Shown in pieces: positions 31,780-63,265 of a stretch of 64,000 nt of DNA. This DNA comes from Candidatus Vogelbacteria bacterium (GTDB lineage: Bacteria > Patescibacteriota > Minisyncoccia > Phycocordibacterales > XYD1-FULL-46-19): the NCBI GenBank assembly GCA_021414225.1, contig JAIOOX010000004.1, forward strand, positions 2,206 through 66,205, written 5' to 3'. How positions within the stretch are numbered: position 1 is the first letter of the stretch; each line of letters opens with the position of its first letter. The position numbers and the translations under genes are program-made. Below the pieces are notes generated by a model that worked only from the letters and a program-made list of their open reading frames with translations, had not been told where the DNA came from and ran no database searches.

Positions 31780-31918
31780 ATATTGATAGACCCTAGTATA
31801 CTGAAAAGTCGAAAAAATGAAAGATTTTGCCAGAAAAAATAAAAGGTGACGAACCCGGTTTCCCGACTACGCCACCCTCCCAAGATTTCGACAAGATCAC
31901 CCCGCAAAGAAAGACAGG

Positions 31919-32251
31919 CTACTTCTTCGGCTTCTTCTTTTTCGGCTTCGGCTTCGGCTCGGCCGGAGCAACCTCGAGCAAGCAGCCCGAAATGTTGCTC
32001 AATCGGCTAGCCGTCTGGCCACAACCGTCTTCACAGATAAGTTGAAGTTCAACTTTCTGCGGGTGGTTGTTGGCCCGGATCTCGTTGGCGCCGACTAGCC
32101 GTGCACCTGTGACCAGGTACTGCCGACCCTTCTTTCCAACACAACAGTCGCTTTTGAGAGCGTCTGCTGTGAACTGAACCTTCTGGTTCGGTCGGAGAAG
32201 GACCACACCCTTACTTGTCCCCGCCTTCGCTGCTGCCATGACAATACCCAT
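31919..32251 (-). CDS. hypothetical Cys-containing protein with KPKPKKKKPKK tail, on a G+C-richer insert
   Basis: 110-aa ORF. Its base composition is clearly above that of its neighbours. Confidence 0.4.
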   Translation of the reverse strand: MGIVMAAAKAGTSKGVVLLRPNQKVQFTADALKSDCCVGKKGRQYLVTGARLVGANEIRANNHPQKVELQLICEDGCGQTASRLSNISGCLLEVAPAEPKPKPKKKKPKK

Positions 32252-32541
32252 CCTTCTAAAACATTTTGATTACTACCCAATGTAGCAACCCTAGATCCAA
32301 AAATAACTTTACACCTTATTATTATATAGTGTCAAGTAAAAACCTGTTTTTGGCCATATTTAGTAACGCCAAAATAAAAACCACCTTAAGACTTCCATAA
32401 CTTCTCGTACCAGTCCCAAGTAAAATGCATGATCAAAAAAGCCGGAATATAAATCGGTATTAGAATAATAGCCAGAGCAAATTTCGCTTTGGAATCTAAG
32501 TTTTTCACTGCGTTATGAATCTTACCAAAATCTGTTAGAAT

Positions 32542-32994
32542 TTGTCTATGTCTACTTTTGTGCACAATAAAAAAGTGAATTTCAATTATGAAATTACCGA
32601 CACTTTTGATGCTGGTATCGAACTACTGGGTCCCGAGGTTAAATCACTGCGACTAGGTCAGGCTTCTCTTGATGGGGCGCATGTCATTATTCGAGGGGAA
32701 GAAGCCTATTTAGTCGGCGCCACTATCGCCCCTTACCAGCCCGGCAACAAGGACTCCAAGGTTGATCCGACTCGAACCCGCCGACTTCTGTTGTCCAAAA
32801 AAGATATTGCCGAATTGATCGGAACCGGGGCTCGCAAAGGATTGACATTAGTGCCGATTTCAGTGTATAATAAAGGACGTTACATCAAGCTTTCGATCGG
32901 TGTCGCTCGCGGTAAGAAGAAATTTGATAAACGCGAAACACTGAAGAAAAAGGAAGCTACTAGAGATGTAGCCAGATCGTTGAAAGATTTTTAA
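32542..32994 (+). CDS. smpB: SsrA-binding protein
   Basis: 150 aa with a SmpB-like sequence. tmRNA follows immediately. Confidence 0.9.
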   Translation: MSMSTFVHNKKVNFNYEITDTFDAGIELLGPEVKSLRLGQASLDGAHVIIRGEEAYLVGATIAPYQPGNKDSKVDPTRTRRLLLSKKDIAELIGTGARKGLTLVPISVYNKGRYIKLSIGVARGKKKFDKRETLKKKEATRDVARSLKDF

Positions 32995-32997
32995 TAT

Positions 32998-33377
32998 GGG
33001 GATGCCAGTTTAGACGAGAGATTACTGGTGTTCGCGCCAAACGGAGGAGGTTACCTAGCTCCTAAAAAACGGTAACAACCTATGAGTGCAAAAACTGCCT
33101 CAAAAGGAAGTGTGGCTTCGCCATACTCTCCTCTAGCTTTCGCTTTAGCCTAAGCTAGTGCTTGCCCAGATTGTGAGTGGCTGTCTGGACCAAGTATAAT
33201 AGTCGCCAATCTTCGGACTCAAAGTTGTCTTGCTTTGAATCCAAAAACTTAAAGACTCGGCCGGGTGATGCTTTTGTGGCTTTTTGATATCACCTGCTTA
33301 AAAAATTGAAAGGCACTATGTTTGGTAGAAACGCTCATCATACCCTCCCGGACGTGGGTTCAATCCCGCCATCTCCA
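32998..33377 (+). ncRNA. ssrA: tmRNA (SsrA)
   Basis: The 5' GGGGATG pairs with the 3' CATCTCC. The 3' tRNA-like end GGACGTGGGTTCAATCCCGCCATCTCCA resembles the canonical tmRNA terminus. An internal tag ORF ...PLAFALA* stops at 33151-33153. Confidence 0.8.
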
Positions 33378-33665
33378 CAAAAATAAGGAACGCAGTGACT
33401 ATATTTTTGTAGGATGCCGCCAGTTGTGCCTAACTGGCGGCGCCACAAATACTATGGGTATTTTCCCGTCAAAGTTTTTTATTTGGCGGCACCACAAAAA
33501 ATAACCAGTGACTTTTTTGTATAATACCGCTAACCACTTACAGTTATCAGCACCACAAGCAATTACCACCTTCATGGGTGGTTTTGTTTTTTGGGGTTGA
33601 CTTCCCCATCTTAACCAGGCATAAATAATACTGGATCAAGTTGCTAACCATAAGGGAATCGTTCC

Positions 33666-34037
33666 ATGCCAAAACGACGTGTCCGTTTTTTGTTTGCGAT
33701 CTGTGGTTGGAGTGTGAACATTATCACCATTCCACCGAGTGGTGTTGTACTGGAACATTTGCACTGGATCAAGGAGGAAGTCTATATCGGTCTGTCGGGA
33801 GTTGGTAAACTGACAATTGACGGCCGGACTACCAAATTCAGTCTCGGCTCGATTCACCACATCCCCACCGGGACCTCTCACGGGTTAACAACCGAAAAAG
33901 GTGTCAGGTTCCTAACCCTCGAGGGCCCAACTTTACCCAATGACACCATTTTTGGACTAAATGGACCCTACCCACCCCGCCCGCCAAGAAGCCCCGCTTC
34001 TGGTCGGCGGGGTTTTCTTTTTAATCTTAATCATTGA
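33666..34037 (+). CDS. cupin-domain protein, on a G+C-rich insert
   Basis: Cupin motifs EHLHWIKEEVYIGLSG and GSIHHIPTGTSHGL. Confidence 0.55.
   Translation: MPKRRVRFLFAICGWSVNIITIPPSGVVLEHLHWIKEEVYIGLSGVGKLTIDGRTTKFSLGSIHHIPTGTSHGLTTEKGVRFLTLEGPTLPNDTIFGLNGPYPPRPPRSPASGRRGFLFNLNH
33990..34023 (+). terminator. intrinsic terminator after the cupin gene
   Basis: gccccgcttctggtcggcggggttttcttttt. Confidence 0.6.
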
Positions 34038-34133
34038 CACAAATAGAAATTTATTGCAGTAATATGACCAGCATAACTAGGTGTTCTAGTTATTTTTGGA
34101 TATAGGTCTTCACAACATAGGAACCAAAGGGAG

Positions 34134-34646
34134 GTGAAAGAAATGGAAAAACATTTCAAGCCATGGCCCAACGCCACCACACAACTACTGTGGGAAATCT
34201 GTCTGGTGCACATCCAGGAGACTGATCCTTTGCCGCTCAACGGCCGGAAAATCCGGCGCCGGGCGGGGCAAATATTCAGCTGGATACGGAAGTTCGACGA
34301 CCAGACCAGTCTTCAAACCTTGATCCTGATCCTGGTTGAAGGACTGAAGGTGGTAGTCGATCGGTGCACCAACGAGGCTCTCAACCTCGATTACCGCCCA
34401 GCCCCCAAACCGATCCCCGAGTCGCTCCAGTCGATCATGCCTGATGAGAGGCTATGGGAAATTTTGTGGCTGATGATGGCTTACAAAATTACCAACACCC
34501 CTATCCTCTGGGGAGACGAAGGTATCAAGGTCATCGCCACCAACCTGACCAACCAACTCACCAGCAATGGTATGCCGGTGAACGAAGATCACACCATCAA
34601 CGTGATCCGAGAACTGTTGGGTCAAGTGGTGACCCAACCTCGCTAA
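34134..34646 (+). CDS. hypothetical protein, G+C-rich
   Basis: 170-aa ORF. A hairpin plus T-run terminator lies at 34751-34785. Confidence 0.4.
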   Translation: MKEMEKHFKPWPNATTQLLWEICLVHIQETDPLPLNGRKIRRRAGQIFSWIRKFDDQTSLQTLILILVEGLKVVVDRCTNEALNLDYRPAPKPIPESLQSIMPDERLWEILWLMMAYKITNTPILWGDEGIKVIATNLTNQLTSNGMPVNEDHTINVIRELLGQVVTQPR

Positions 34647-34889
34647 CATCCCAATCATGGGTGTCCCCTTGATTGGGGCCTAAACGGTAATTCGACCTCC
34701 CGGCTCACGCCGACTTGGTCGAGGATAAGAACGTTCCCTATGATTCACTGCCGGTCGAAGCGCAAGCGCTTCGGCCGGTTTTTCCTTTCCTTAAAAACTT
34801 GACCAAAAATAAATAGCATGTAATAGTATCGTCTGGAGATTCTGGGAAATAGTTCCTGGAATAACGTTTACCTAGAGAGGTTTTCGCAC

Positions 34890-35081
34890 ATGCATAGCAA
34901 CGGTATTGTCGGGGTTAAAGCTAACGGTTTCCAGGCGGGAGACCGGGTGACCCAAAAAGGTGGCGAGAGTGCCTTTGAGGTGCTTACCGCCGTAAGCAAA
35001 GAGGGTAACAAAGTTGCCCTCAAGTCGCTGACCGGCAGCCTCGCGTTCGTGGAGCTGGCCGAGAACTTGGTTCTCGCGTAA
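34890..35081 (+). CDS. small hypothetical protein
   Basis: 63 aa. Preceded by the sigma70-like promoter ttgacc-17-taatag and an AGAGAGG RBS. Followed directly by a terminator at 35101-35138. Confidence 0.4.
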   Translation: MHSNGIVGVKANGFQAGDRVTQKGGESAFEVLTAVSKEGNKVALKSLTGSLAFVELAENLVLA

Positions 35082-35100
35082 CCCAAAACGTTTTTATACA

Positions 35101-35138
35101 CCTCCCCGAGCCACCAGGCCCGGGGAGGATTCTTTTTT
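35101..35138 (+). terminator. intrinsic terminator
   Basis: cctccccgagccaccaggcccggggagg followed by ttctttttt. Confidence 0.6.
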
Positions 35139-35312
35139 ATAAAGAAGCCAAGGGTTTGACCCCGTAGTAGATTTTGGTATTGGTCATAGACCCACTCCGC
35201 CTGTCAGGACGGAGTGATAACAAAATTCACTACCGGGTTTGACTTTTCTCCCAATTTCCCTTACTATTGTTGGGTACAGCCGTCGAATAGACGGTATTAA
35301 TTTACAAGGTTT

Positions 35313-35876
35313 TTGAATAAATACATACGCATCAATAATCAGATAACCGCCAAAGAACTCCGAGTAATAGATGACGAAGGAGGTAATTTGGGAGTTATTT
35401 CGAAAGAAGAAGCTTTGAAAGTCGCTCAGGAGCGAGAAGTGGATTTGATAGAAATATCACCAGCCGCCAATCCCCCAGTAGCTAAACTCATGGACTTCGG
35501 TAAGTGGCAATATCTAGAAAATCGTAAAGATAAACTAGCTAAAGCCAAAAGCCATATTATTGAAACAAAATCCTTGCAGATTAAAATCGGTACCGGTGAG
35601 CACGATCTAGGCTTGAAAGCCAAAAAAACAGGTGAATTCTTAGCTGAAGGTCACCGGGTCAAGATTGAACTATTCTTACCAGGTCGGTCCAAATTTTTGG
35701 AAAAAACCTTCCTAGGTGATAGATTAGAGAGAATCCTAAGACTAATTCCTATCGATTACAAAGTAGCCGAAGGACCAAAACAAGGACCAAAGGGTATTTA
35801 TGTGATCGTCGAGAAAGGTTCAGCCAAAGCCAAAGAAGAAGAAACAATCCAAACAACCAATCATGAAAACCAATAA
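35313..35876 (+). CDS. infC: translation initiation factor IF-3
   Basis: IF3 N- and C-domain sequence. infC-rpmI-rplT synteny. The true start may be an upstream non-ATG codon. Confidence 0.85.
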   Translation: MNKYIRINNQITAKELRVIDDEGGNLGVISKEEALKVAQEREVDLIEISPAANPPVAKLMDFGKWQYLENRKDKLAKAKSHIIETKSLQIKIGTGEHDLGLKAKKTGEFLAEGHRVKIELFLPGRSKFLEKTFLGDRLERILRLIPIDYKVAEGPKQGPKGIYVIVEKGSAKAKEEETIQTTNHENQ

Positions 35877-36048
35877 ATCATACTCTAAGCGTCTACGAGT
35901 AACCAAAACTGGGAAAATTTTGGCTCGTAAAGCTGGTAAAAACCATTTTAATGCTAAGGCTTCCCGTTCTTCTCAGTTGACTGGCAAACGCATGACCCAA
36001 ATCGTCATGACTAATAAAAGCGCTTCCCGCTTCTTGTCAGGTTTATAA
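35863..36048 (+). CDS. rpmI: 50S ribosomal protein L35
   Basis: 61 aa, Lys/Arg-rich. Overlaps the infC stop and precedes rplT. Confidence 0.75.
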   Translation: MKTNKSYSKRLRVTKTGKILARKAGKNHFNAKASRSSQLTGKRMTQIVMTNKSASRFLSGL

Positions 36049-36072
36049 TAATAAGCTAGTAATACATACACC

Positions 36073-36420
36073 ATGCCACGCGTAAAACGAGGAACAATAT
36101 CAATGAAGCGACGACGCAATGTCCTTAAACAGGTCAAAGGCTTTCGTTTTGGTCGCAGTACTAAGGAACGATCAGCTATTGACGCTATCCTCCACGCTGG
36201 CCGCAGTGCTTATGGTCACCGCCGTGACAAGAAAGGAGATTTCCGTCGTCTTTGGAACATCAAGATCGGCGCAGCTCTCTCCCCGTTTGATCTTTCCTAC
36301 AGTAAATTCATTGGTATGTTAAAAACCAAAAACATCGAATTAGACCGAAAAGTAATGGCTCAAATTGCTGAAACCGAACCAGAATCATTCGCTCGACTAG
36401 TAGAACAAGTTAAAGCCTAA
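36073..36420 (+). CDS. rplT: 50S ribosomal protein L20
   Basis: MPRVKRG...RRR N-terminus typical of L20. Confidence 0.9.
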   Translation: MPRVKRGTISMKRRRNVLKQVKGFRFGRSTKERSAIDAILHAGRSAYGHRRDKKGDFRRLWNIKIGAALSPFDLSYSKFIGMLKTKNIELDRKVMAQIAETEPESFARLVEQVKA

Positions 36421-36430
36421 ATTTAAACTA

Positions 36431-36458
36431 AAAAACTCCCCAAACCGGGGAGTTTTTT
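36431..36458 (+). terminator. intrinsic terminator after rplT
   Basis: aaaaactccccaaaccggggagtttttt. Confidence 0.7.
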
Positions 36459-36474
36459 AGTTGCTTCAAAAAGA

Positions 36475-37845: not shown

Positions 37846-38319
37846 ATTGTAACGTAAATTAACCTTCTCTCAAAACTGTTCGACAGACTCGACAAGCTCA
37901 CTGCAAGCTAGCTCACAATAAACCTTTCGACCAGCTCAAGCTAAACAAAAACCGCCCAAAGGCGGTTGTTGTTTAGGCAACTAGGATAATTACCAGGGTA
38001 TTTCTACGTGGGTGTCCGCAACATCAGACCAAGGTCTAACGCAATTGAGACTCCCTGATAATATTAATCTGGATAATCCTAGGAACCTCTGCTTATTATA
38101 ATCCTCCTTTTTGGGTATGCAATACAAAATCACTAACGTAATACAAAAAAATAATTCAGTAAATAACACTTCCAGAAAAAGCATACTGCGTAAAGGTATT
38201 TAATGGAACAAAACGAAACATATCTCGCAAAGGGGGTTTGCGGAGTGACGACGACACAACTTCAGGATTTTTTAAGCTTCAAAAAATCCGTACCCTTTGC
38301 GAGATGATGTTGAGTGAAT

Positions 38320-38892: not shown

Positions 38893-38902
38893 AATGATTG
38901 GA

Positions 38903-40248: not shown

Positions 40249-40255
40249 ATAATTA

Positions 40256-40723: not shown

Positions 40724-40730
40724 AAAAAAA

Positions 40731-45296: not shown

Positions 45297-47054
45297 TTAT
45301 TCACTAATCTGGTATTGCCAAAAACGGTGATATATTTCCTCATTTTTAATAAGCTCTTGATGATTTCCGTCTTCTACTATTTTACCCTTATCCATCACAA
45401 TAATCCGGTCCATTTTCTGGATAGTACTGAGTCGGTGGGCAATAACAATCGTGGTCCGACCCTTAATTAAGGAATCGAAGGCCTCTTTGATAAATCCTTC
45501 ACTTTCGGTATCAAGTGACGAAGTTGCTTCATCGAGGATAATAATTGGCGCTCGTTTAAGAATTGCCCGAGCGATGGCCACACGCTGACGCTCACCGCCG
45601 GAAAGCTTCACTCCCCGCTCACCGACCAAGGTATCATACCCTTGCGGCAATTGACTGATAAAATCATGAGCATAGGCCTTTTTAGCAGCTTCAATCACAT
45701 CTTCCATGGTCGCTTCTTCATTACCATATTTGATATTCTCCAATAGGGACCGATGAAACAAAGACGGATCTTGTGGCACATAGGCAATATTCTGACGAAG
45801 ATCATCTTGGGTAATAGAGTCAATACGTTGACCATCAATAGCAATCTCACCCGACTGTACGTCAACGAATCGCAAAATAAGTTTAACCAAGGTCGATTTA
45901 CCACAACCAGATGATCCTACTAGGCCCACTTTCTGGCCAGCAGGAATTGTGAGATTAAAATCAGTAAATACTGGATTGGTTGGATGATAATAAAAATTAA
46001 CCTTATTAAATTCAATAGCTCCAGCCTTAATAGCTGGTGTTTGGGAGGTAGTTAAATCTTTAACTTCAATTGGTCGTTCAATAATGTCGATCATTTCGCT
46101 AGCGTCAGCCAGGGCTTCGGTAAACTTACTAATAGAGCGTCCCAGGCCCCACAAATGAGCAAAAATATTAGCAAAGACTAGTTGAGCCAAGACCAGTGTG
46201 CCTACACTAATTGAACCCTTAGACCACAAGGAGAGAGCGAGGTACATACCAATAATTTCAAGTAACGAAAAAGCTAAGCTCTGGAGACCAATCTGGATGA
46301 CAAACACCTTCTCTGATCTCAGCCTTGCTATCAACTCTTCTGTGGTTACTCGTTTAAAACCATCAATCTCTTTATCTCGTCCACTAAAAACTTTGATAGT
46401 CAAAATATTAGTAATAGCATCTGCTAATGATGCTGTTACTTTTGAATCTGCTTCTGATCGTTTCAGATCATACGGATTACGGTAAATAACAAAGGCGATC
46501 GTAATCCCAACGTAGACAACAAACCAGATAACAAAAAAAATGGTAAGCCAGATATTCTGAAAACTAAAGACAATAAATGTAGCAATAATACTTAGTACCG
46601 CCGGTCCAATACCATAAAATATCTCATTCAGAACAACCTCAAACGATCGTGTTAATCGTTTAGCTTTAGCCACCAAAGCGCCTGAGAAATTATCACTAAA
46701 AAATTGATATGAGTGCTCAGTTAGTTTACTAAAAGTTCGATCATGTATATCTTTTAGTATTGGGTCTTGGCTTTTGTACAAACAAAAATCAGAGATACGA
46801 AAAAATACACTATACAGAATATACAAAAAAGTCATCATCCCAGCTAAGGCCAGAAGTTCAGGACTAATAAACCCTAATGCGTGATGACTAGTCAGATAAT
46901 CAACTATTTTTTTATACTGAATCGGAACAATAGTATCAGCCAAAATAAGACCGGCCCAAAAAAATAGAGCAGCAGAAAAAAATAGTGCTTGATACGGAGC
47001 AACACTAGGAGAGGTATATTTAATAAAACGTTTTAATTGCTTAACCAAATTCAT
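45297..47054 (-). CDS. ABC exporter, fused permease/ATPase (MsbA-like)
   Basis: Six N-terminal TM helices. Walker A GSSGCGKST. Signature LSGGERQRVAIARA. Walker B ILDEATS. Confidence 0.8.
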   Translation of the reverse strand: MNLVKQLKRFIKYTSPSVAPYQALFFSAALFFWAGLILADTIVPIQYKKIVDYLTSHHALGFISPELLALAGMMTFLYILYSVFFRISDFCLYKSQDPILKDIHDRTFSKLTEHSYQFFSDNFSGALVAKAKRLTRSFEVVLNEIFYGIGPAVLSIIATFIVFSFQNIWLTIFFVIWFVVYVGITIAFVIYRNPYDLKRSEADSKVTASLADAITNILTIKVFSGRDKEIDGFKRVTTEELIARLRSEKVFVIQIGLQSLAFSLLEIIGMYLALSLWSKGSISVGTLVLAQLVFANIFAHLWGLGRSISKFTEALADASEMIDIIERPIEVKDLTTSQTPAIKAGAIEFNKVNFYYHPTNPVFTDFNLTIPAGQKVGLVGSSGCGKSTLVKLILRFVDVQSGEIAIDGQRIDSITQDDLRQNIAYVPQDPSLFHRSLLENIKYGNEEATMEDVIEAAKKAYAHDFISQLPQGYDTLVGERGVKLSGGERQRVAIARAILKRAPIIILDEATSSLDTESEGFIKEAFDSLIKGRTTIVIAHRLSTIQKMDRIIVMDKGKIVEDGNHQELIKNEEIYHRFWQYQISE

Positions 47055-50945: not shown

Positions 50946-51089
50946 ATTTACAAAAAGAAAAGCTCACCTGGAGCTTCGCAATATCTTATCAAATAATGCT
51001 TAAATGTCAAACTCTGGACTGCTAGCAGACTCAATAAAAGTCCCCCGCCGGCCAGTAGGCCAGCGGGGGCTATAAATTAAACCAGTTAA

Positions 51090-51446
51090 TCAGATCCTCC
51101 TGGCCAAGCCTGGGCAGTGAGAACACAGCATGATCCAAGCCTGGGGTGCCTCCTGTGGGCCACTGGTAAGCACCTGGTTAATCAGGGCTAGTTTAGTGTT
51201 CACCAGAGGTAAGGCTTTTGGATCAGACACCTCTCCAAGGTGGCCCTTCAATTCTTCCAACCGACCCTTAAAACCACTACAAACCTCCAGCTGAAGTAGA
51301 TAGGTGTTCTGGAGAGCCCCTTGGGGGGTATTACTGACCGGCATAACCTTGCCACACCGATCACAAGCTACCCAGAATTCTCCCGTGTCAGAATTTTTCA
51401 TCTCCTTCAAATCCGGAGAAGAACAACTTGGACAAGATAATTTCAT
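51090..51446 (-). CDS. zinc-ribbon (CPSC...CDRC) hypothetical protein on a G+C-rich insert inside the S10 operon
   Basis: MKLSCPSCSS...VACDRCG. The start at 51446 is preferred over 51521. It is flanked by hairpins at 51040-51075 and 51535-51570. Confidence 0.4.
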   Translation of the reverse strand: MKLSCPSCSSPDLKEMKNSDTGEFWVACDRCGKVMPVSNTPQGALQNTYLLQLEVCSGFKGRLEELKGHLGEVSDPKALPLVNTKLALINQVLTSGPQEAPQAWIMLCSHCPGLARRI

Positions 51447-51582
51447 ACTCGAAACTCCATATTGATTGTTGTGCCCTTTAGAGGCCCTCTGTCTTTCCAC
51501 CACCATAACTACCGCAAACATATTTGACTGTCAAACAAAAAAATCGAGCAACTGCTCGATTTTTTTGTTAAGTTTTTTTAAA

Positions 51583-54032: not shown

Positions 54033-54058
54033 AGTAGTAGTTACAGTAAGCTAGATCC

Positions 54059-54421: not shown

Positions 54422-54449
54422 AGAGTTTTTAATATCCCGAGTGTTTTAT

Positions 54450-55655
54450 TTAGGCTACGATTTTAGTTACCACACCAGCTCCAACTGTCTTACCACCTTC
54501 ACGAATAGCAAAGCGGAATTGATCTTCCAAAGCAACCGGGGCTACCAATTTAACTTTGAATTTAACAGTGTCTCCAGGCATAACCATTTTCACATCGTCA
54601 TCCAAAGTTACTTCACCAGTAACATCGGTAGTTCGAACGTAAAATTGAGGTTTGTAACCAGTAAAGAATGGAGTGTGACGACCACCTTCTTCCTTCTTTA
54701 AGATGTAAACTTCAGCTTCGAAATCAGTGTGAGGAGTAACTGAACCTGGTTTAGCTAGAACTTGACCACGAGTGATGTCATCTTTCTTAAGACCGCGAAG
54801 TAGGATACCAGCGTTGTCTCCAGCCATACCCTCATCAAGTTGTTTGTTGAACATTTCAATACCAGTCACAGTAGTCTTAACAGTATCTTTCAAACCGACA
54901 ATTTCAATTTCTTCACCAACTTTGACCATACCGCGTTCGATACGACCAGTAACAACAGTACCACGACCTTCAATTGAGAAGATGTCTTCAACTGGCATCA
55001 AGAAAGGCTTTTCGATTTCTCGAACTGGTTGTGGGATATAAGAATCAACAGTATCCATCAATTCCAATACTTTCTTAGCCCATTCATCTGAACCATCCTT
55101 AGATTCAAGGGCTTTTAGACCTGAACCACGGATAATTGGAGTGCCTTTACCATCAAAACCATTCTTTTCCAACAAATCTCGAACTTCTTCTTCTACCAAG
55201 TCAATCATTTCAGCATCATCAACCATATCAACCTTGTTTAGGAAAACGATCAATTTAGGTACACCTACTTGGCGAGCCAAAAGAACGTGTTCACGAGTTT
55301 GAGGCATCAAACCATCAGTAGCAGCTACCACCAAGATAGCACCATCCATTTGAGCGGCACCAGTAATCATGTTCTTGATGTAGTCGGCGTGACCTGGAGC
55401 ATCAATGTGAGCATAGTGACGATTAGCTGTCCAATATTCACTGTGGTGGAGAGCAATAGTGATCCCTCGGGCTTTTTCTTCAGGAGCGTTATCGATACCA
55501 TCAACACCCTCAACTCGGGCGCCATAGCCTTTGTCTTTATTAAGGTCTAATACATGCAAAATAGAAGCTGTTAAAGTGGTCTTACCGTGGTCGACGTGAC
55601 CAATAGTACCAATGTTAACGTGAGGCTTCGAACGATCAAATTTATCTGCGGCCAT
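54450..55655 (-). CDS. tuf: elongation factor Tu
   Basis: [28 protein letters not shown]. The internal ATG is preferred. Own promoter at 55800-55830 (minus strand: TTGACG-17-TATAGT). Confidence 0.9.
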
Positions 55656-55947
55656 ACGAAAATTATTATAATTTGTACCAGTTTTTACGCTTCCAATAAG
55701 CGCCCCACTGGCCTCCAGATCCTGCCGACTGACAGAATCCAAAGCTATTAATATAGTTGACTAAATAAAAAACACGCGGGATGCGTAACGACTATACTAA
55801 ACAAAAAACGGCTAGCCGTCAACCCTAAACCACCCTATAAGGGTTTTCCTCTACAAACAGACCTAAAACTGAAGCAAATCTACCTCTTATTTTACACCCC
55901 AAACCCCGTTACTTAGCCCCTTAAACACAAACCTAATGAGGACTTTT

Positions 55948-57150
55948 TTACTTAGTTTTTACCGCTTTAACCTTAGGAGCGGCTGCGGCAATACATCTAG
56001 TTTTTATCCTATTTTCACAAGTGGTGTAGTTTGAGGTACAACGAGCAAGCAAAGTAGTCGTCTTAGTACTAAAAGCTGTCTCACAGGTAGCTTGTTTAGC
56101 TACCTGTTTCGCTAAACAAGTTTTAGCGGTATTAAGATCTCTCTCTTGAGAGACTTTGGCCGAAAGCTGACATAGACCAAATCTAGTCTGACAACGAAGG
56201 TTTTTAGCAGCAATATTGGTAGATAGACAAGTAGTTAAGTTTGTCTGACATTTAACCAAGTAGGTGGCACTTCTAGTCTCATAGCGCTTACAGTTAGCGG
56301 CAGCGGTATCAAATTTAGCCTGACAGGTGTTCACTAAGGCTTTAACCTTTCCAATACAAGTTGTTTCTTGATTATTACAGGTCACAATATTTTTTTCTAC
56401 ACAAGCGGTCACCTTAGGATCTGTTGGCACCACCACGACCGGTGGAGTACCGTCGCCAGTTGTCGAAGTAGCTGTATCATTAGAATCTGAAGTAGTTGTG
56501 CCGGTGGAATTGTCATTTGAATCAGTATTATCAGTACCATCATTGGTAGTAGTACCTGTATTACCATCCCCAGAACCAGTCGAGTCACCACCCGTGTCCC
56601 CAGTCGTGTCTGTGTTAGGGTCTTGATTGTCACCATTATCGCCAGTGTCATCGGTGGTTGGAGGAATAGTTACTGGTTGCAGAAGACCTCGTAAACGTAA
56701 CAAGTCAGCAAAAGTACCTTGTAGTTCCAGTCTAGAAACCCCCAAGCTGGATGTGGCCTTATTCATCAAACCCTCTAAATACAAGGTAGTTAAGATGCTA
56801 TTTTGTTTAGACCGAAAGGCTAAAATAGCGGCGGTTGTATAGTCCTCATTTTGGTAAGACTGCACCGCTCGATCAAGTAAAGCTTTGGAAACCTCCAACT
56901 TGCCCGAGATTTCACCTAAAGACACCTCCATTACTACGCCAGAATTAATTGGAAGAGAACCCTGTTGTTGGATCTCACTTAATTTCAAATCAATTAAAGT
57001 CATTGTGCTTTCAGCTTCTTTAATTAATTTGTAAGCTTGCTCACTAGCCAAAGTAGCCTGTTGAGCATAAACAACCACCTGACTCGGTATTAAAATCGAC
57101 ACAAAAACCAAACCGGCCATTAGAAAACTAGAGAAAATATGTTTCATCAT
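55948..57150 (-). CDS. secreted low-complexity, Cys-rich protein
   Basis: Signal peptide. Asp/Thr/Gly/Asn-rich spacer. A C-terminal domain with about 16 Cys at regular 7-10-aa spacing. Confidence 0.5.
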   Translation of the reverse strand: MMKHIFSSFLMAGLVFVSILIPSQVVVYAQQATLASEQAYKLIKEAESTMTLIDLKLSEIQQQGSLPINSGVVMEVSLGEISGKLEVSKALLDRAVQSYQNEDYTTAAILAFRSKQNSILTTLYLEGLMNKATSSLGVSRLELQGTFADLLRLRGLLQPVTIPPTTDDTGDNGDNQDPNTDTTGDTGGDSTGSGDGNTGTTTNDGTDNTDSNDNSTGTTTSDSNDTATSTTGDGTPPVVVVPTDPKVTACVEKNIVTCNNQETTCIGKVKALVNTCQAKFDTAAANCKRYETRSATYLVKCQTNLTTCLSTNIAAKNLRCQTRFGLCQLSAKVSQERDLNTAKTCLAKQVAKQATCETAFSTKTTTLLARCTSNYTTCENRIKTRCIAAAAPKVKAVKTK

Positions 57151-57278
57151 AAAATTTAAAATATTAAAGAGTCTATCTCCATGTCTAAATTATAACACCG
57201 ATTGGTCGCATAAAAAAATAAACCCCTGTGGAATAAGAACCACCGGGGTTTATTTAGTTAAGAAAAGATAATTCTAAA

Positions 57279-59420
57279 TTATTTTCTACCTTCAATGATA
57301 GTCTGCGCTACGTTTGTTGGAATAATTGCGTATTCAGCAAATTCCATTGCAAAAGTACCACGACCTTCAGTCATAGAGCGTAAATTGGTCACATAACCAA
57401 ACATTTCTGACATTGGTACTTTAGCTCGAATAACTTTTAAGTTACCTCGATCTTCCATACTTTCGATTTGGCCACGCTTAGATGATAAGTTTCCAGTAAT
57501 ATCTCCCATGAATTTTTCTGGGACCACCACTTCCACCTTCATGACTGGCTCTAGCAAAACTGGTTTAGCTCTTTTAGCGGCATCTTGTAGCGCCATCGAA
57601 CCAGCCATTTTGAAGGCCATTTCTGAAGAGTCCACATCGTGATAAGAACCATCGTAAAGCTCAACGGAAACGTCCACCAACTTGAAGCCCGCTTGGACTC
57701 CCCGCTCCAAACCTTCACGAATACCTTTTTCTACCGGCGTAATAAATTCTTGAGGAATAGCACCACCTTTAATCGAGTTAATAAATTCAAAATCAGCCTC
57801 TCGAGTAGTGTTTTTAGGTGCATCTTCAATCTTCAAAGTCTTATCAAGTGGTTTAATTCGAATCCGAACGTGACCATATTGACCCTTACCTCCAGATTGT
57901 TTGATGTACTTACCTTCTGCTTCTGATTCACCAGTAATAGTCTCTTTGTAGGCTACTTGTGGTTTACCAACATTAGCTTCCACATTAAACTCTCGCTTCA
58001 TACGATCAACGATAATTTCTAGGTGCAGTTCACCCATTCCAGCAATCAGAGTTTCCGCTGTTTCTTGATCAGTCTTCACTTTGAAAGTTGGATCCTCGTC
58101 AGATAGTTTCTTAAGAGCCATACCCATCTTTTCTTGATCGGCTTTAGTTTTTGGCTCAATCTTCATAGACACAACCGGTTCTGGGAACTCAATTTTATCC
58201 AAAATAATTGGACTGGTTTCATCACACAAAGTGTGAGAAGTTTTAGTATTTTTCAAACCAACAACAGCAGCAATTTCTCCAGCATAAACATTTTCTACTT
58301 CTTCTCGATGGTTAGCGTGCATTCTAACTACCCGACCGATTCGTTCTCTATCACCAGTCGTTGAATTGTAAACATAAGAGCCAGCCGACAAAACACCTGA
58401 ATATACTCGGACGTAAGTTAACTGACCAACAAAGGGGTCACTTTGGAGTTTAAAAGCTAAAGCTGCCAATGGCTCTTGATCAGAAGAGTGACGAACAATT
58501 TCTTCGTCGGTTTTTGGATCAACTCCTTTAACTGGTGGAATATCTAATGGTGACGGTAAATAATCAACCACCCCATCGAGTACTAATTGCACTCCTTTGT
58601 TTCGGAGAGCGGAACCACAGAAAACTGGCACCAAAGCCACTTTCAAAGTAGCCTCACGTAAAACTCGTTTCAAATCATCAAAACTAATTTCCTTACCCTC
58701 TAGGTAGTCATTCATCAACTTTTCATCCTGTTCAGCGATTTTTTCTACCAAAATAGCTCGATATTTCTCAGCCTCAGCTTGAAACTCTGCCGGAATTTCG
58801 GCTTCAATAATTTTCATACCCATATCCCCTTCAAAGGTATATGATTTCATTCTAAGTAGATCAATCACTCCGTTATGAGCATCATCTTCACCCAAAGGAA
58901 TTTGGACTCGAACAGCATTCTTGGTCAATCGGTCAATAATCGAATTGAAAGACTTAGTAAAAGAAGCACCCATACGATCCATCTTGTTTATAAAACAGAT
59001 TCGAGGGACATTGTATTTATCAGCTTGACGCCAAACAGTTTCTGATTGTGGTTCTACTCCAGCCACTCCATCAAACACCACCACTCCGCCATCCAAAACT
59101 TTCAGACTTCTCTCTACTTCCGCTGTAAAATCCACGTGACCAGGAGTATCAATAATATTTACTCGGTGTTTTTTTGATTCATCACCAACGGCATAGGTTG
59201 GAGTCCAAAAAGCCGTAGTGGCAGCTGAAGTAATAGTAATACCTCTTTCTCGTTCTTGTTCCATCCAGTCCATAGTCGCTTCTCCTTCGTGTACTTCACC
59301 AATTTTGTGAGAAACACCTGTATAGTACAAAACACGCTCTGAAGTAGTAGTCTTACCAGCGTCAATGTGGGCAATAATTCCAATATTACGAACCTTCTCT
59401 AGTGGATAGTCGCGAGACAT
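57279..59420 (-). CDS. fusA: elongation factor G
   Basis: [10 protein letters not shown]-domain, 713 aa. Confidence 0.9.
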
Positions 59421-59492
59421 AAAAAATAAAATTAAAAACTAATATAACCAGACCAAAAAACTTAATAAAATTATAACACCAACCTAAGAGAT

Positions 59493-59972
59493 TTAGCCTC
59501 GATTAGCCCAAGCAAAGTGAGCAAAAGCTCGGTTTGCTTCAGCCATCTTGTGAACATTCTCTCTCTTCTTCACCGCCTCACCTTCGTTGTTGAAAGCAGA
59601 CACTAATTCGTTAGCTAGACGCTGACTCATTGGTGAACCTTTTTTAGTTTTAGCGGCTTCAATAATCCAACGTAAAGATAAAGCCAAGCGACGTTCTGGA
59701 CGAACTTCGTGAGGCACTTGATAGTTAGCACCACCAATTCTCTTAGATCGAACTTCCATTTGTGGAGCAACATTCTTCAAAGCAGATTCAAAAATCTCCA
59801 CTGGTGAAGTTTTTAGTTTTTCTTCTACATGTTTGAAAGCATCATAAACCACTTTGCGAGCGGTATTCTTTTTACCTTCTTGCATAATATAGTTAATCAG
59901 CTTCTCAACGTTAGTTGAGTTGTACATCAAATCTGGCTTTAAATCTCTTTTGTAGTTAACTTTACGTCTCAT
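59493..59972 (-). CDS. rpsG: 30S ribosomal protein S7
   Basis: Sequence and synteny. Confidence 0.9.
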   Translation of the reverse strand: MRRKVNYKRDLKPDLMYNSTNVEKLINYIMQEGKKNTARKVVYDAFKHVEEKLKTSPVEIFESALKNVAPQMEVRSKRIGGANYQVPHEVRPERRLALSLRWIIEAAKTKKGSPMSQRLANELVSAFNNEGEAVKKRENVHKMAEANRAFAHFAWANRG

Positions 59973-59986
59973 TTTATTAGAAAATA

Positions 59987-60406
59987 TTATTTAGCCGCTT
60001 TTGGTCGCTTGTTACCATACAAACTACGACTTTGACGACGCTTGTCAACACCAGCCGCATCGAGAACACCACGAACAATGTGATAACGAACACCCGGCAA
60101 GTCTTTAACACGACCACCACGAATCATAACCACAGAGTGTTCTTGCAAATTGTGACCTTCACCAGGAATATAAGCAGTCACTTCCATACCATTAGTTAGG
60201 CGCACACGAGCAATTTTACGTAAAGCCGAGTTTGGTTTCTTAGGAGTAGTAGTTTTAACCAACAAACAAACCCCTCGCTTAAATGGTGATGGGTAAAAAA
60301 CAGGCTTGTTTTTAAGCGTGTTAAAACCACGAGACATCGCGATTGATTTAGTCTTTCTTTTAACCTCTTTTCGAGGTTTTCGGATCAGCTGATTGATTGT
60401 TGGCAT
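59987..60406 (-). CDS. rpsL: 30S ribosomal protein S12
   Basis: [10 protein letters not shown]...[10 protein letters not shown]. Confidence 0.9.
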
Positions 60407-60468
60407 AACGGGAACACTTTAATACATTATCGCTCAAAATGCAACTTTATAGTGCCCAAGTAAGCACC

Positions 60469-61089
60469 CTAACCCAATAACCCGCCGGTCAACAGTTTGA
60501 ATAACACCGAGACTAGGGGTGAAATAAGTGCACTAGCCCCAAATAAAACCACCAAAATGATCAAAATCTGATTGCTAGCCAATAAGTTTTCAATATAACG
60601 CCATTTGTAAGGCAAGATCGCAAATAGGATTTTGGAACCGTCTAGCGGTGGGACCGGGATTAAATTGAATAAAGCCAAGACAATGTTCATCATTACCACT
60701 GAACCAGAAATAGAAATAACCGCTGGAGACAACCCTAAAACAAGACTATTTTGAATAATTAAACCAAAAATAACCGCTATAAATAGATTGGAAGCTGGCC
60801 CCGCTGCCGCAACCAAGGCGGGGCCCCAGTTACCAGCTCGAAGATTATAAGGATTGAAAGGTACCGGCTTGGCCCAACCAAAAATGAGACCACCTGGTAA
60901 TAAGCTTAGTAGTAAAGGTAATATAATAGAGCCCAAAGGATCAATATGAGGTATAGGGTTAAGAGTCAGACGACCAGCCAGTTTGGCTGTCTGGTCACCT
61001 AAAAACAAAGCCATATAACCATGAGCCACCTCGTGAATGACCACTGACATGATTAAAATCAGGACAAAAAAGATAGTATCAATAGACAT
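60469..61089 (-). CDS. site-2-protease-family (M50) membrane metalloprotease
   Basis: HEVAHG HExxH motif within a TM helix. LNPIPHIDPLG motif. Confidence 0.65.
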   Translation of the reverse strand: MSIDTIFFVLILIMSVVIHEVAHGYMALFLGDQTAKLAGRLTLNPIPHIDPLGSIILPLLLSLLPGGLIFGWAKPVPFNPYNLRAGNWGPALVAAAGPASNLFIAVIFGLIIQNSLVLGLSPAVISISGSVVMMNIVLALFNLIPVPPLDGSKILFAILPYKWRYIENLLASNQILIILVVLFGASALISPLVSVLFKLLTGGLLG

Positions 61090-61177
61090 GGTGAATTATT
61101 TACTTAGACTTAGGGTTTACAGATAAGCTCCTGCATGATAACATAACGGAGCGTTATTTTTAAACATTTTCACTATT

Positions 61178-61387
61178 ATGAAAGCTTGCCCATTATGTAA
61201 TAAAGGTACCCAGATGGTCGGAGGTTACTCCAACCGTATTCGTGCTACCAAATACAACCAAACTGGCAAAAACCGCAAGTATCCCAACCTCCAATGGGCG
61301 CCTCTAGCCGCTGGTGGACGTCTAAAAATCTGTACTTCTTGTCTTAAAAAAGGTAAACACTTAACTGACATTCAGACTGTAATTTAA
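61178..61387 (+). CDS. rpmB: 50S ribosomal protein L28 (Cys4 type)
   Basis: CPLCNKG...S...TK...PNLQ...CTSC fits the L28 pattern. A terminator follows at 61421-61445. Confidence 0.7.
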   Translation: MKACPLCNKGTQMVGGYSNRIRATKYNQTGKNRKYPNLQWAPLAAGGRLKICTSCLKKGKHLTDIQTVI

Positions 61388-61542
61388 AAACCAAATAAGC
61401 CTGTCCCCATAAAATCCCCGATCTAGGGGATTTTATTTTTGTAGTTTAAATCTTTTGTGTTAGCGTTTAATCAGTCCAGCTCTTTGACGTGATAATAAGA
61501 GCGGTTTACATATAAAACTCCAACCAAGAAAGGCGGAACGCC

Positions 61543-61845
61543 ATGTCGCCAGCAGATAGCTTCAATGACCAGTTTCACCGAATCTTGGTGAAACTTCCCA
61601 ATCCCCATCGAGTATTGGTCGTAATGTTCCTGGCCCGTAGTCAGGTCAATTTTACCATTGAAAATGAATGTCGCCTGATTGTTGATGTTTTCATCAACTT
61701 TTTAGTTGAAAACTACCCAACAAACCAGGACTTGGTCCAGACCTTACAAGAAGCCTGGCTCAAGTGGTGCAACAAACCTATTAACCCTAACGAAATAGTA
61801 TTCCGACACACACCGGAACTCTGGGAGACTGACCATGATGAATAA
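61543..61845 (+). CDS. hypothetical protein, translationally coupled to the DnaA-like gene
   Basis: 100 aa. Promoter-like TTGACG-17-TACATA and an RBS upstream. Its stop overlaps the start of the next ORF. Confidence 0.4.
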   Translation: MSPADSFNDQFHRILVKLPNPHRVLVVMFLARSQVNFTIENECRLIVDVFINFLVENYPTNQDLVQTLQEAWLKWCNKPINPNEIVFRHTPELWETDHDE

Positions 61846-63265
61846 TCATAAAGCCATGGTCAGCCTAGGACCATCGCCAACCAGCGACTTAGTCGATAAA
61901 GCTATCGCTGATGTAGAAAAGTCTAAGCAGGCCAACCTCAACCTCGACCGTCACATCAAGCAAGGTTTGGGCAATCTAGGAACCCAGTCCAACACCTTGG
62001 CTTGGATAGACGTTCGGGGAGTAATTGTTTTCGACAACGAGACAGGTATTCTGACAATCCCGGTTAAAAATGACTTCTGTGCTAGATGGTGTCGGGAACA
62101 CCGGGAGGTCCAAGGGGACATTACCCTTTGCCTGCCGGATGGATTCCAGTTCAAGAAAATGGAATTTGTGGAAACTGGAATACCAGACACTCCCGAACCA
62201 AACACCTCTTTAGAAGCGAGGTCAGAACCAGAACCAGGCGATCCGATCCAAGAAGTTTTTGACTTTGGCGCCAACAAGAGTACAGTCAAATTTAACCCGG
62301 GAAAGGAAAATTTAAAAACCTACGATTTAGTTAAGTGTATTCTAGACCGAGAAACCGACTTCCCCCTCATGGTCTTATGGGGTGAGAACGGCACCGGTAA
62401 AGAAACTCTAGCTAATCAGGTCTATCGCCGAGGCACCAGGTTGCTCGCCGGCCTGGCCCAAAAAAGAAAGACTCCCCAAACTGCGATAGTATCAGCCATT
62501 GGTTTCCAGGCCGAGTTTGTGGCTTGTTTTAGAGATGCAAAGGACGGCAAAAAAGCCCTCCAAGTCCTCCAAGACAGGCTACTAGTTCGACTATTGGTTA
62601 TTACTGACTTGGACACGTTCTGTGGTCGAAACAACCAAGGAACAGCTGATGCCCTAAGCCAAGCTGTAACCAAGGTAATAGACTCTGGCGGTCGAGTTCT
62701 AGTAACCATGTCGGTACCCGAAGGTGGTACCTACGAGGAAACTTTAGGAAAAATCAACCCCACGATTGTCCAACTTTTGGGAACCAAGGGCTTCGCAGAC
62801 TTCCTGATCAAACCGGCCAGTTTGGAAACCAGGGTTGAGATCCTGTCTCAGCTCCGGGGGCCAAACATGGAAACATTAAGCGAAGATTCCAGAAAAATTT
62901 TGGCTACCCAGTGGCCCACTGTAGCCAGTATGCTTACTCAAGGGAAAAAGTTCCTCCATGGAATCGTCGATGAAGAACCAAGAAAGGAGACACCATCCCC
63001 CCCGAAGATTATCGAGGCGATTGAATCCTGGAGCCAGCTACCTAAGGGTTCCCTGGTCGGACGAAGCAAAACCAGGCGAGTAGTCCAAGGTCGGCACCTG
63101 GCCATCTACCTGGTCGCGGAGCTGCACCCAAAAATGACAGCGGCCACGATTGGAAAGTTGTTTGGCAACAGAGACCACACAACCGTACTCTATGCCAAAC
63201 AACAAGTCTCTATGAACATCGATCTTCAGGATTCTCTGGAAGCAGCCAGAAAGTTGTTTACGTAA
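61835..63265 (+). CDS. divergent DnaA-like protein (AAA+ domain with degenerate Walker A plus DnaA domain IV)
   Basis: GENGTGKE in place of GxxGxGKT. Walker B LLVITDLD. Box VII-like FADFLIKPASLETRVEIL. C-terminal HLAIYLVAELHPKMTAATIGKLFGNRDHTTVLYA matches the DnaA DNA-binding domain. Confidence 0.6.
   Translation: MMNNHKAMVSLGPSPTSDLVDKAIADVEKSKQANLNLDRHIKQGLGNLGTQSNTLAWIDVRGVIVFDNETGILTIPVKNDFCARWCREHREVQGDITLCLPDGFQFKKMEFVETGIPDTPEPNTSLEARSEPEPGDPIQEVFDFGANKSTVKFNPGKENLKTYDLVKCILDRETDFPLMVLWGENGTGKETLANQVYRRGTRLLAGLAQKRKTPQTAIVSAIGFQAEFVACFRDAKDGKKALQVLQDRLLVRLLVITDLDTFCGRNNQGTADALSQAVTKVIDSGGRVLVTMSVPEGGTYEETLGKINPTIVQLLGTKGFADFLIKPASLETRVEILSQLRGPNMETLSEDSRKILATQWPTVASMLTQGKKFLHGIVDEEPRKETPSPPKIIEAIESWSQLPKGSLVGRSKTRRVVQGRHLAIYLVAELHPKMTAATIGKLFGNRDHTTVLYAKQQVSMNIDLQDSLEAARKLFT

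Follow-up and report, generated by a model that had tools for sequence, protein, structure and literature searches.

The systems that most closely resemble the loci described here are genomic islets at genes for transfer-messenger RNA (tmRNA) and at operon boundaries, orphan accessory genes, and paralogues of the replication initiator DnaA. The tmRNA gene, ssrA, is a classic integration hotspot. For horizontally acquired genes of atypical composition a model of amelioration was reportedly put forward by Lawrence and Ochman, and GC-biased gene conversion at recombining loci is an existing hypothesis. The gene dnaA is autoregulated via a DnaA box in its own promoter. Besides chromosomal DnaA, the family has derivatives such as Hda. 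DnaA-like initiators exist on plasmids of Rickettsia (PMC1800911). The usual arrangement in Paceibacteria groups dnaA with dnaN and rpmH/rnpA (PMC12102498). In a stretch of 64,000 nucleotides from Candidatus Vogelbacteria bacterium (contig JAIOOX010000004.1, positions 2,206 to 66,205; the whole stretch is referred to as the window), an earlier reading had delimited four segments, S1 (31800-32290), S2 (33378-35300), S3 (50946-51582) and S4 (61450-63265), as small G+C-rich insertions. The analysis of these segments favors the view that they are lineage-specific accessory gene cassettes situated in permissive gaps between transcription units. The cassettes would differ in age and be unrelated to each other as elements, with S3 and S4 inherited vertically, S1 swapping its alleles and S2 lying at the ssrA-infC hotspot.

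The G+C content of the window is 0.414 (41.4%) and S1, S2, S3 and S4 are the maxima of its profile. Values of 0.515 (z 3.7), 0.487 (z 5.1) and 0.477 (z 4.3) were obtained for S1, S2 and S4, respectively, and these were reached by none of the background windows of the same size. S3 as delimited has a G+C content of only 0.455 (z 1.8), with its open reading frame (ORF) alone having 0.49. The excess is located at third codon positions. Using the 62 host genes of the window as reference, for which the G+C content at third positions (GC3) has a mean of 0.335, a standard deviation of 0.051 and a maximum of 0.441, the seven ORFs of the segments were found to have values of 0.48-0.68 (z 2.9-6.8), every one of them above the host maximum. 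These values split into two classes of approximately 0.66 and 0.50 (S1, 0.65; the 170-aa and 63-aa genes of S2, both 0.68; the cupin gene of S2, 0.48; S3, 0.51; the 100-aa and 476-aa genes of S4, 0.51 and 0.52). The shift in codon usage is chiefly from NNT to NNC, with T at 0.41 and C at 0.15 of host third positions, compared with T at 0.14-0.32 and C at 0.21-0.37 in the S genes, and no other gene of the window carries a signature of this type. It was also considered that the low GC3 of the host could be an artefact of highly expressed ribosomal genes. This was rejected, as pilus, ligase, RecG, comEC and hypothetical genes likewise have values of 0.24-0.44. The description of the segments as compositional outliers, G+C-richer than the host, is therefore borne out, S3 as delimited being the least marked of them. 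The cumulative GC skew shows a steady fall over all 64 kb, with nearly all genes on the minus strand, and the seven S ORFs all obey this local replication-strand skew, having more C than G on the plus strand regardless of which strand is coding.

Each cassette has its own signals for expression, namely a promoter-like site and a ribosome-binding site ahead of its one to three ORFs, and an intrinsic terminator behind them. The terminator scan and RNA folding show hairpins followed by T-runs at the bounds of the cassettes, in agreement with the sequence-only reading. That reading had also placed the segments inside essential operons and at junctions that are normally invariant, and neither point could be upheld. 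All four cassettes sit between transcription units and none (0/4) interrupts one; the ssrA/infC and rpmB/comEC gaps are between units and ftsH/smpB is a divergent promoter region. No sign was seen that rpmB/comEC is a conserved junction, and the other three are variable in the two class-wide comparison sets that were used, consisting of 80 Paceibacteria smpB loci and 80 metagenomic rplB loci. The gap between ftsH and smpB is no larger than 300 bp in 33/53 Paceibacteria loci and exceeds this in the other 20/53, the distance from smpB to infC is greater than 1.5 kb in 21/27 loci, and the rplB/rpsS junction is open in many relatives.

For three of the segments, counterparts were found at the same sites in relatives (designated here by locus numbers such as L002), so a recent insertion is not supported for S1 (L004, L167), S3 (L085) or S4 (L002, L003); S2 has no relatives. 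An orthologue of the S3 protein with 90% aa identity is present in L085 (from NCBI), a locus with 96.6% nucleotide identity over 4.8 kb, with a ratio of nonsynonymous to synonymous substitution (dN/dS) of 0.18. Both genes of S4 have syntenic orthologues between rpmB and comEC in L002 (from JGI) and L003 (from ENA). The identity is 90% (L002) and 58% (L003) for the 476-aa protein, and 77% (L002) and 72-73% (L003) for the 100-aa protein (dN/dS 0.18-0.29 for the latter, 0.17-0.29 for S4 overall). In these two relatives S4 likewise has a G+C content of about 0.50, against 0.38-0.42 in its flanks. The synonymous divergence (dS) of S4 is close to that of the neighboring comEC in both comparisons (0.34-0.49 vs 0.38 for L002; 1.86 vs 1.59 for L003). 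Judging from these alignments, S3 and S4 are inherited vertically within the genus and kept under purifying selection (dN/dS of approximately 0.2). Vertical conservation of the cassettes across the clade, which the sequence-only reading had named as an observation that would speak against its proposal, was found at the level of the genus and not at that of the class.

The direction of compositional change was followed in the 476-aa gene of S4, in which third-position differences between the window and L002 were polarized with L003 as outgroup. There were 28 changes from GC to AT and 27 from AT to GC, while approximately 68% GC-to-AT changes would be expected at the host GC3 of 0.335 (binomial P = 0.005). 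The GC3 of this gene is 0.52, 0.52 and 0.58 in the three lineages, and that of comEC is 0.35, 0.34 and 0.25. The balanced changes, together with the stable GC3 across lineages, argue that the atypical codon usage is a maintained state and not a decaying foreign signature. The G+C richness shared by the cassettes is a preference for codons ending in C or G, at equilibrium at least in S4.

These results bear on the origin that was first proposed for the segments, namely recent foreign DNA from a single source, be it phage, host organism or co-resident genome, or else one mobile family of which they would be the decayed copies. A number of features agree with it. GC3 is shifted in all seven ORFs, most of the S proteins are orphans, mobile elements occur at the same junctions in relatives (an island in L004 and an IS1595 element in L087), and a small element resembling a transposon lies at the end of S2. 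The segments are also extra DNA when compared with the order of genes in the wider clade, and across the 80 smpB and 80 rplB loci the S1, S2 and S3 proteins have no homologues at class level, S1 of L004 excepted. The compositional signature, on the other hand, is host-like. The composition-normalized dinucleotide distance delta* of each segment falls inside the spread of equally sized host windows (S1 121 vs 122+-38; S2 99 vs 71+-19; S3 141 vs 114+-37; S4 80 vs 69+-20), and S1 plus S2 are separated from S3 plus S4 by a distance of 76.6, no closer than random pairs of host windows (mean 85.9). No protein similarity was found among the cassettes and no significant matches to the S proteins in PHROG or PADLOC. 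A tblastn search of 50,697 phage records gave no match for S1 or the 170-aa protein of S2, only distant DnaA proteins for S4 (22-38% identity) and one weak match, to a primase zinc-binding domain, for S3. The cupin had no match among the PLSDB plasmids, and four IMG/VR scans were negative. Domain searches identified no integrase or transposase in the segments, as had been stated in the sequence-only reading. Around S1 and S3 neither common termini nor target duplications were found, terminal repeats are lacking in S1, S2 and S3, S4 has no transposase or flanking target duplication, and S2 has no integrase or distal attachment (att) repeat.

The genes of the segments resemble the 'alien' genes of horizontal transfer in their shifted GC3, orphan proteins and variable junctions, and differ from them in that S4 is not ameliorating, dinucleotides and skew are host-like, and the cassettes are conserved in position in relatives, S1, S3 and S4 being syntenic. 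The two classes of GC3 also do not suggest a single donor. A common foreign source is thus not supported, given the host-like signature, the lack of similarity among the proteins and the absence of close viral or plasmid relatives and of PHROG or PADLOC matches, and the same is true of one family of decayed elements, since the proteins are unrelated, the ages differ and no termini are shared. On this evidence we consider a one-source origin to be quite unlikely. The statement that the segments encode small proteins that cannot be assigned is correct for most of them, which are orphans, with the exceptions of S4, encoding a 476-aa protein of the DnaA family, and S2, encoding a Cupin_2 protein.

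Within the preferred reading, of accessory cassettes of different ages, S1 is the one with allelic exchange. Its single ORF (31919..32251, minus strand) encodes 110 aa with a Lys-rich tail and is directly upstream of, and co-oriented with, ftsH. The promoter scan identified the site TTGACA-18-TAAAGT (32335-32306, minus), and a hairpin followed by a U-run (31842..31880, minus; fold z = -3.5) terminates the unit, after which comes the ftsH promoter. An exhaustive HMMER search of 1.8 billion representatives returned only three other homologues, 52-58% identical. Orthologues in L004 and L167 are also located upstream of ftsH, and a family hidden Markov model found no homologues at the ftsH/smpB junction of 79 other Paceibacteria. 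While FtsH and SmpB of the window are 99 and 98% identical to those of L004, S1 is only 51% identical. At conserved residues, the proportion of identical codons between window and L004 is 0.81 for ftsH, 0.79 for smpB and 0.30 for S1; in comparison with the more distant L167, ftsH and S1 have the same value of 0.54. From these proportions it follows that the tree of S1 alleles is in conflict with that of the flanks. This indicates, on the comparison of these few loci, that the site of S1 is fixed and that its alleles are swapped by homologous recombination in the conserved flanks. S1 would in this way remain at one site while recombination exchanges its alleles. Synonymous sites are saturated between three S1 alleles, whose GC3 is 0.65-0.67.

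S1 thereby resembles hypervariable or allele-swapping loci in its fixed position and promoter, variable allele, conserved flanks and conflicting trees, and differs from them in being a single small gene with no known link to surface antigens, restriction or defence. A structure modelled by AlphaFold from the four sequences (pLDDT, the predicted local distance difference test, 68.8) is a small five-stranded beta-barrel with the Lys-rich tail, for which no match better than E = 0.2 was found in the PDB; the basic tail prompts a guess that the protein might bind nucleic acids. A 34-nt module upstream of S1 (32322-32290, minus) is shared with the region upstream of the 170-aa gene of S2 (34072-34106). 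The two copies have 28/33 identities and a score of 36, compared with a maximum of 31 in shuffled sequences (0/2000), this being the best match among all gene upstream regions. A 19-nt motif within the module occurs only twice in the window, and the S1 copy of the module is kept in L004 and L167. Between the S1 promoter and smpB, overlapping the smpB start, there is also a 59-aa ORF with a hydrophobic helix (32386-32565, minus). Its protein is approximately 69% conserved in L004 and may be a genuine small membrane protein.

The exchange of S1 alleles is also relevant to a different account of the high GC3, according to which alleles arrive repeatedly from a G+C-richer gene pool, the sister Paceibacteria with 50-58% GC, and neither selection nor biased conversion in place is responsible. 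The closest relatives in the rplB set do include genomes of such composition (L087, L094, L096 and L098), and a host-like signature would fit donors of the same clade, as would the conflict of the S1 and flank trees. Divergence from L002 is also a mosaic. In the region 54450-64000, the genes of the stretch tuf-rpsG, one of them hypothetical and not conserved, have dS values of 0.03-0.14 to L002, and those lying between the M50 peptidase gene and comEC, both inclusive, have values of 0.25-0.49, a pattern which suggests recombination between lineages. Set against this, the similar dS of S4 and comEC in two comparisons fits vertical descent, and homologues of the S proteins were not found in the 160 related loci. 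We regard import as an unlikely general explanation and as a possible further contributor to the GC3.

S4 consists of two plus-strand genes, one for a 100-aa orphan (61543..61845) and one for 476 aa (61835..63265), overlapping by 11 nt. The promoter-like site TTGACG-17-TACATA (61484..61512, plus) follows the rpmB terminator, and a conserved bidirectional hairpin (63287-63320; fold z = -3.5) is shared with the convergent comEC. The 13-nt sequence GTGATAATAAGAG has exactly two exact copies in the window, which are inverted and bracket the operon; the left copy (61489-61501) is inside the promoter spacer and the right copy (63269-63281, minus) begins 4 nt after the stop codon. It resembles a DnaA box at 6-7/9 positions; the left copy is invariant in L002 and L003, and L003 conserves both copies. 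The right flank of S4 has 85-95% identity to L003/L002, and the two intergenic regions are 83-86% identical overall to those of L003, with nearly invariant stretches, compared with 52-77% for the flanking coding sequences. The earlier statement that no terminal repeats are visible consequently applies to S1 and S3, and has to be amended for S4, with its perfect 13-nt inverted repeat, and for S2, which ends in a transposon-like element.

The 476-aa protein has only two close homologues among 5.8e9 proteins. The Pfam domain Bac_DnaA_C (PF08299) was identified at E = 8e-16, comprising the helix-turn-helix of domain IV with the motif RDHTTV, and DnaA domain IV in the PDB was matched. There was no match to the Pfam Bac_DnaA AAA+ model (PF00308), and TIGR00362 matches at the C-terminus only. 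The protein nevertheless aligns over its length to canonical DnaA, with the Walker B motif VITDLD and the Box VII motif ETR present. The Walker A motif is GENGTGKE in the window and GEDGTGKE in L002, not the canonical GxxGxGK[ST], while L003 keeps GKS. In an AlphaFold model of moderate quality (pLDDT 64.6), residues 35-115 form an alpha/beta unit like domain I, and in a Foldseek search the top 8 PDB matches were all DnaA domains III-IV (E 1e-10 to 5e-8). By the alignment and the model, the product is a full-length, extremely divergent member of the DnaA family. It is like DnaA in having an AAA+ unit with the domain IV helix-turn-helix, RDHTTV, the Box VII ETR and the Walker B aspartate, in its best structural matches, and in the DnaA-box-like site in its own promoter, which recalls the autoregulation of dnaA. 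It is unlike DnaA in the missing PF00308 match, the GKE of Walker A, its translational coupling to a 100-aa orphan, the existence of two close homologues only, and the surroundings of the gene, which lack a dnaN, a box cluster and a skew switch.

The same data could be explained if S4 were the sole chromosomal dnaA of the organism, evolving fast and having regulatory or origin elements in its flanks, with the G+C richness of the segments a property of native genes under special codon selection. The full-length architecture, the strongly conserved non-coding flanks and the DnaA-box-like inverted repeats are all in keeping with this, as are the lack of another dnaA within the 64-kb window and the arrangement of genes, which are nearly all on the minus strand to the left and on the plus strand from rpmB to S4, as at an origin. 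A canonical oriC next to S4 was considered and rejected, there being no cluster of DnaA boxes at 61.0-63.4 kb (that is, within 2.4 kb) and no switch of GC skew up to 64 kb, the latter a weak test as the window ends 0.7 kb past S4. No dnaN is adjacent to S4, despite the usual linkage of dnaA and dnaN in Paceibacteria (PMC12102498). The GKE in place of GK[ST] in the window and L002 also speaks against it, as does an aa identity to L003 of 58% compared with 76% for comEC, a rate of change that would be unusual for an essential initiator. It is doubtful, therefore, that S4 is the only dnaA. With no dnaN, box cluster or skew switch nearby, and given the usual linkage, an accessory regulator or auxiliary initiator is favored. 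The S4 protein is probably a DnaA-derived DNA-binding regulator or auxiliary initiator, and probably autoregulates via the DnaA-box-like 13-nt repeats at both ends of the operon; it would bind these inverted repeats and so regulate its own operon. Separately from S4, four perfect DnaA boxes (TTATCCACA) are found within 11 kb, at 5262, 7423, 8919 and 16238, in and between type IV pilus genes and two of them intergenic, when fewer than one would be expected by chance in the whole window (an estimate).

S3 is located within the ribosomal-protein superoperon, which occupies 38-61 kb of the window. Its slot begins with a bidirectional hairpin terminator (51534..51569), a perfect 17-bp palindrome directly after the rplB stop codon (51583). 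This is followed by a TTGACA hexamer and then by the S3 ORF (51090..51446, minus), which encodes 118 aa if translation starts at the ATG at 51446, or 143 aa with a start at 51521. A G+C-rich hairpin terminator of 12 bp, 11 of them G-C pairs (51042..51069, minus; terminator scan), ends the unit. The protein possesses an N-terminal CxxC...CxxC zinc ribbon and matched only itself among the 5.8e9 proteins. There is a sub-threshold match to the NCBIfam model ECs_2282_CxxC, and the primase/helicase of a Proteus phage has a zinc-binding N-terminus to which the first 90 residues are 29% identical (database E = 4e-4). Downstream, a separate promoter-like site precedes rpsS (51010-50983, minus; TTGACA-16-TAAGAT, with a TG upstream), and the 5' untranslated region of this gene contains a hairpin with a T-run (50977-50959, minus).

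The rplB-rpsS gap is 2-59 bp in every relative whose RplB is at most 56% identical to that of the window, and many of those with RplB identities of 60-76% have gaps of 180 to >2270 bp that hold unrelated DNA. In L087 this DNA encodes a HepT/MNT toxin-antitoxin pair as well as an IS1595 transposase, and in L091 a DNA methylase fragment. In L088 the gap has an arrangement of terminator, ORF, terminator and promoter like that of S3; its 54-aa ORF has a GC3 of 0.85 in a genome of 41% GC, and Rfam found nothing in this gap. The hairpin or terminator after rplB is also present in relatives with an open junction, and the rpsS promoter-like site, stem-loop and T-run are found in L088, L090, L091, L094, L096 and L098, with stem sequences that differ. 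The sharing of the rplB terminator and the rpsS promoter and leader implies that the S10 operon was already split in the common ancestor of these relatives. On the comparison of these junctions, S3 fills a pre-existing slot, and the rpsS promoter is native and not brought by S3. The rpsS leader could be of the attenuator type and serve the distal half of the split S10 operon. Elsewhere in the superoperon, a gene for a 585-aa ABC transporter (within 45297-47054) lies between rplE and rpsN, and a 400-aa gene with no Pfam match (within 55948-57150) lies between tuf and fusA, both with host-like G+C; these would be older fillings of other gaps.

S2 follows ssrA (32998..33380, plus; Rfam RF00023, 84.5 bits) and is composed of three monocistronic units on the plus strand, each closed by a strong hairpin. 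The first gene (33666..34037) encodes a 123-aa Cupin_2 protein (Pfam PF07883, E = 1.1e-8) and its hairpin terminator (33988-34016; terminator scan) overlaps its 3' end. The second (34134..34646) encodes an orphan of 170 aa, or 167 aa from the ATG at 34144, and follows the S1-like upstream module mentioned above; its terminator is at 34750-34779. G+C contents at the three codon positions of this gene are 0.55/0.36/0.68, and its protein matched only itself among the 5.8e9 proteins, this copy being from the same strain. The third gene (34890..35081), for a 63-aa orphan, lies between a promoter-like site (34799-34827) and a terminator hairpin (approximately 35101-35128; fold z = -4.8). The cupin and 63-aa ORFs were called as genes in an independent Logan assembly. 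The S2 proteins are absent from the part of L004 that was covered, up to 5.3 kb past ssrA, and from 79 other loci.

The sequence-only reading had S2 starting at the 3' end of ssrA, which is not the case. The gene is followed by an intact conserved trailer of 70 nt with a hairpin (33381-33450, plus; fold z = -4.0), which could be aligned to L049, L021 and L055 and for which there is no Rfam match. In L004 the ssrA terminus leads into a different, A+T-rich island, in which the gene for a 540-aa large serine recombinase (3615-5237) overlaps the ssrA 3' end; a GIY-YIG nuclease ORF (2966-3241) is inserted between smpB and ssrA in the same locus, which belongs to a sister species. In L048 and L033 the conserved trailer is displaced by about 2 kb from ssrA, behind a TCCACA repeat (L048 ~9011-9060; L033 ~9200-9250). 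The islands of all three are inserted exactly at CCACA|AAAATAAG, the ssrA terminus, which, with the displaced trailers, identifies this as the insertion site in the clade. In the window the site is unoccupied, the trailer being contiguous with ssrA and S2 lying beyond it, from which it follows that there is no island at the ssrA terminus of this genome. Beyond the trailer there is a degenerate second copy (33490-33560, plus), with the direct repeats D10 and D20 at a spacing of 110-113 nt, followed by a bidirectional hairpin (33565-33582; terminator scan). This second copy, with the hairpin, is possibly the scar of an earlier integration or excision. No recombinase domain was found in the S2 ORFs by domain searches and no direct repeat of the ssrA end near 35140-35312, on the far side of S2. 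S2 is thus similar to tmRNA- and tRNA-associated islands in adjoining ssrA, with relatives (L004, L048, L033) that hold islands at the ssrA terminus, and differs from these in having no recombinase, no distal att repeat and a position other than that of the att site.

A trailer-type sequence with a hairpin is also found directly after ssrA in L021, L049, L055, L057 and L070, and its stem sequence varies between genomes; it marks the native flank of the gene. A motif similar to the trailer, GCGACTATATTTTTG, follows the tRNA-Ser at 17389. Beside tRNA-Ser(GCT), ARAGORN predicted a second tRNA-Ser with the unusual anticodon ACT (17540-17629), for which the Rfam tRNA score is 56 bits.

The right end of S2, upstream of infC, contains a 74-nt element (35161-35234, plus; 35152..35243 with flanking repeats) that resembles a miniature inverted-repeat transposable element (MITE). 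Its ends are inverted repeats of 14 nt, which are imperfect, and direct repeats of 9 bp (GGGTTTGAC) adjoin it on both sides. The element folds into a long hairpin (fold z = -5.6) and has a single copy in the window. The right 9-bp repeat provides the -35 hexamer of the promoter-like site of infC. A second copy is present upstream of rpmB in L002 (9198-9286), flanked by AGGGTTTAC, at a position where a three-way alignment shows the window to have the empty site; in the ribosomal-protein block next to it, L002 and the window are 98% identical. The element is thus short and non-coding, with inverted repeats, direct repeats and a filled/empty polymorphism, as is characteristic of MITEs, which it also resembles in its hairpin. 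It differs from MITEs in that only two copies are known, one in each of two genomes, and no partner transposase was identified. As the two target sites hardly differ, the 9-bp repeat could belong to the element itself.

It might finally be asked whether the segments are real, or whether they code for proteins at all, as they could be chimeras of assembly or binning, or structured RNAs. G+C-rich patches in A+T-rich genomes are often RNA genes, and the Logan gene caller skipped the S1 ORF. Chimerism is unlikely, with the same arrangements recurring in independent assemblies from four archives (Logan SRR15633504, NCBI GCA_020049755.1, JGI 3300027924 and ENA). Structured RNA was rejected as an explanation of the G+C-rich patches, as Rfam, applied to the whole window at the gathering threshold and to 31700-35400 at E <=1, gave only tmRNA and tRNAs, the former alone at E <=1. 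The dN/dS of approximately 0.2 for S3 and S4, the periodicity of G+C across codon positions, and the preservation of the S1 frame and key residues across the four homologues all speak for protein-coding genes. Taken as a whole, this explanation is highly improbable.

Several points weigh against the interpretation as accessory cassettes of different ages. S2 has been seen only in the species of the window and has no relatives, so that the basis for regarding it as coding is the cupin Pfam match and the G+C content by codon position; in L004 it could also lie beyond the island, past the 5.3 kb covered. The promoters of S4, the cupin gene and the 170-aa gene of S2 were read by eye and fail the rules of the scan. 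The 34-nt module common to S1 and the 170-aa gene hints at some shared history, as does the likeness, a weak one, of S3 to the phage primase zinc-binding domain, and both count in favor of a single source. The accessory status of S4 was judged from the window alone. The equilibrium test rests on 55 polarized sites with an outgroup near saturation; as a saturated, GC3-rich outgroup pushes the count toward GC-to-AT changes, the test is conservative. Lastly, the cause of the stable GC3 is one step removed from the observations; we infer that codon choice is under selection or that the recombining accessory loci undergo GC-biased gene conversion.

A more far-reaching form of the interpretation can be proposed tentatively, as a possibility that we think more likely to be wrong than right. 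According to this, the segments would be private, fast-evolving, autonomous small-gene cassettes in fixed slots between operons, in which codons ending in C or G are actively kept against A+T bias, for example by GC-biased gene conversion or because a distinct regime of expression is selected for. Among them would be an offshoot of DnaA with a degenerate P-loop, coupled to a small partner and binding its own operators at both ends of the operon.

What is unusual is the stability of the GC3 anomaly and the ancestral split of the S10 operon; current understanding is not overturned by these findings. The genomes of the CPR (Candidate Phyla Radiation)/Patescibacteria are small and highly syntenic, and sites at which extra genes are tolerated reveal how these episymbionts innovate. 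That the S10 operon is ancestrally split at rplB/rpsS, with contents of the gap that differ between lineages, provides one such site. The persistence of a compositional anomaly at equilibrium, through saturating synonymous divergence, calls for caution in reading GC3 outliers as recent transfers, and the stable GC3 offers a test case for distinguishing biased gene conversion from codon selection in reduced genomes. S4 is a new regulator derived from DnaA or, alternatively, an initiator that evolves unusually fast. If the former is true, this offshoot of DnaA with its degenerate P-loop would be a new regulatory derivative of the replication initiator.

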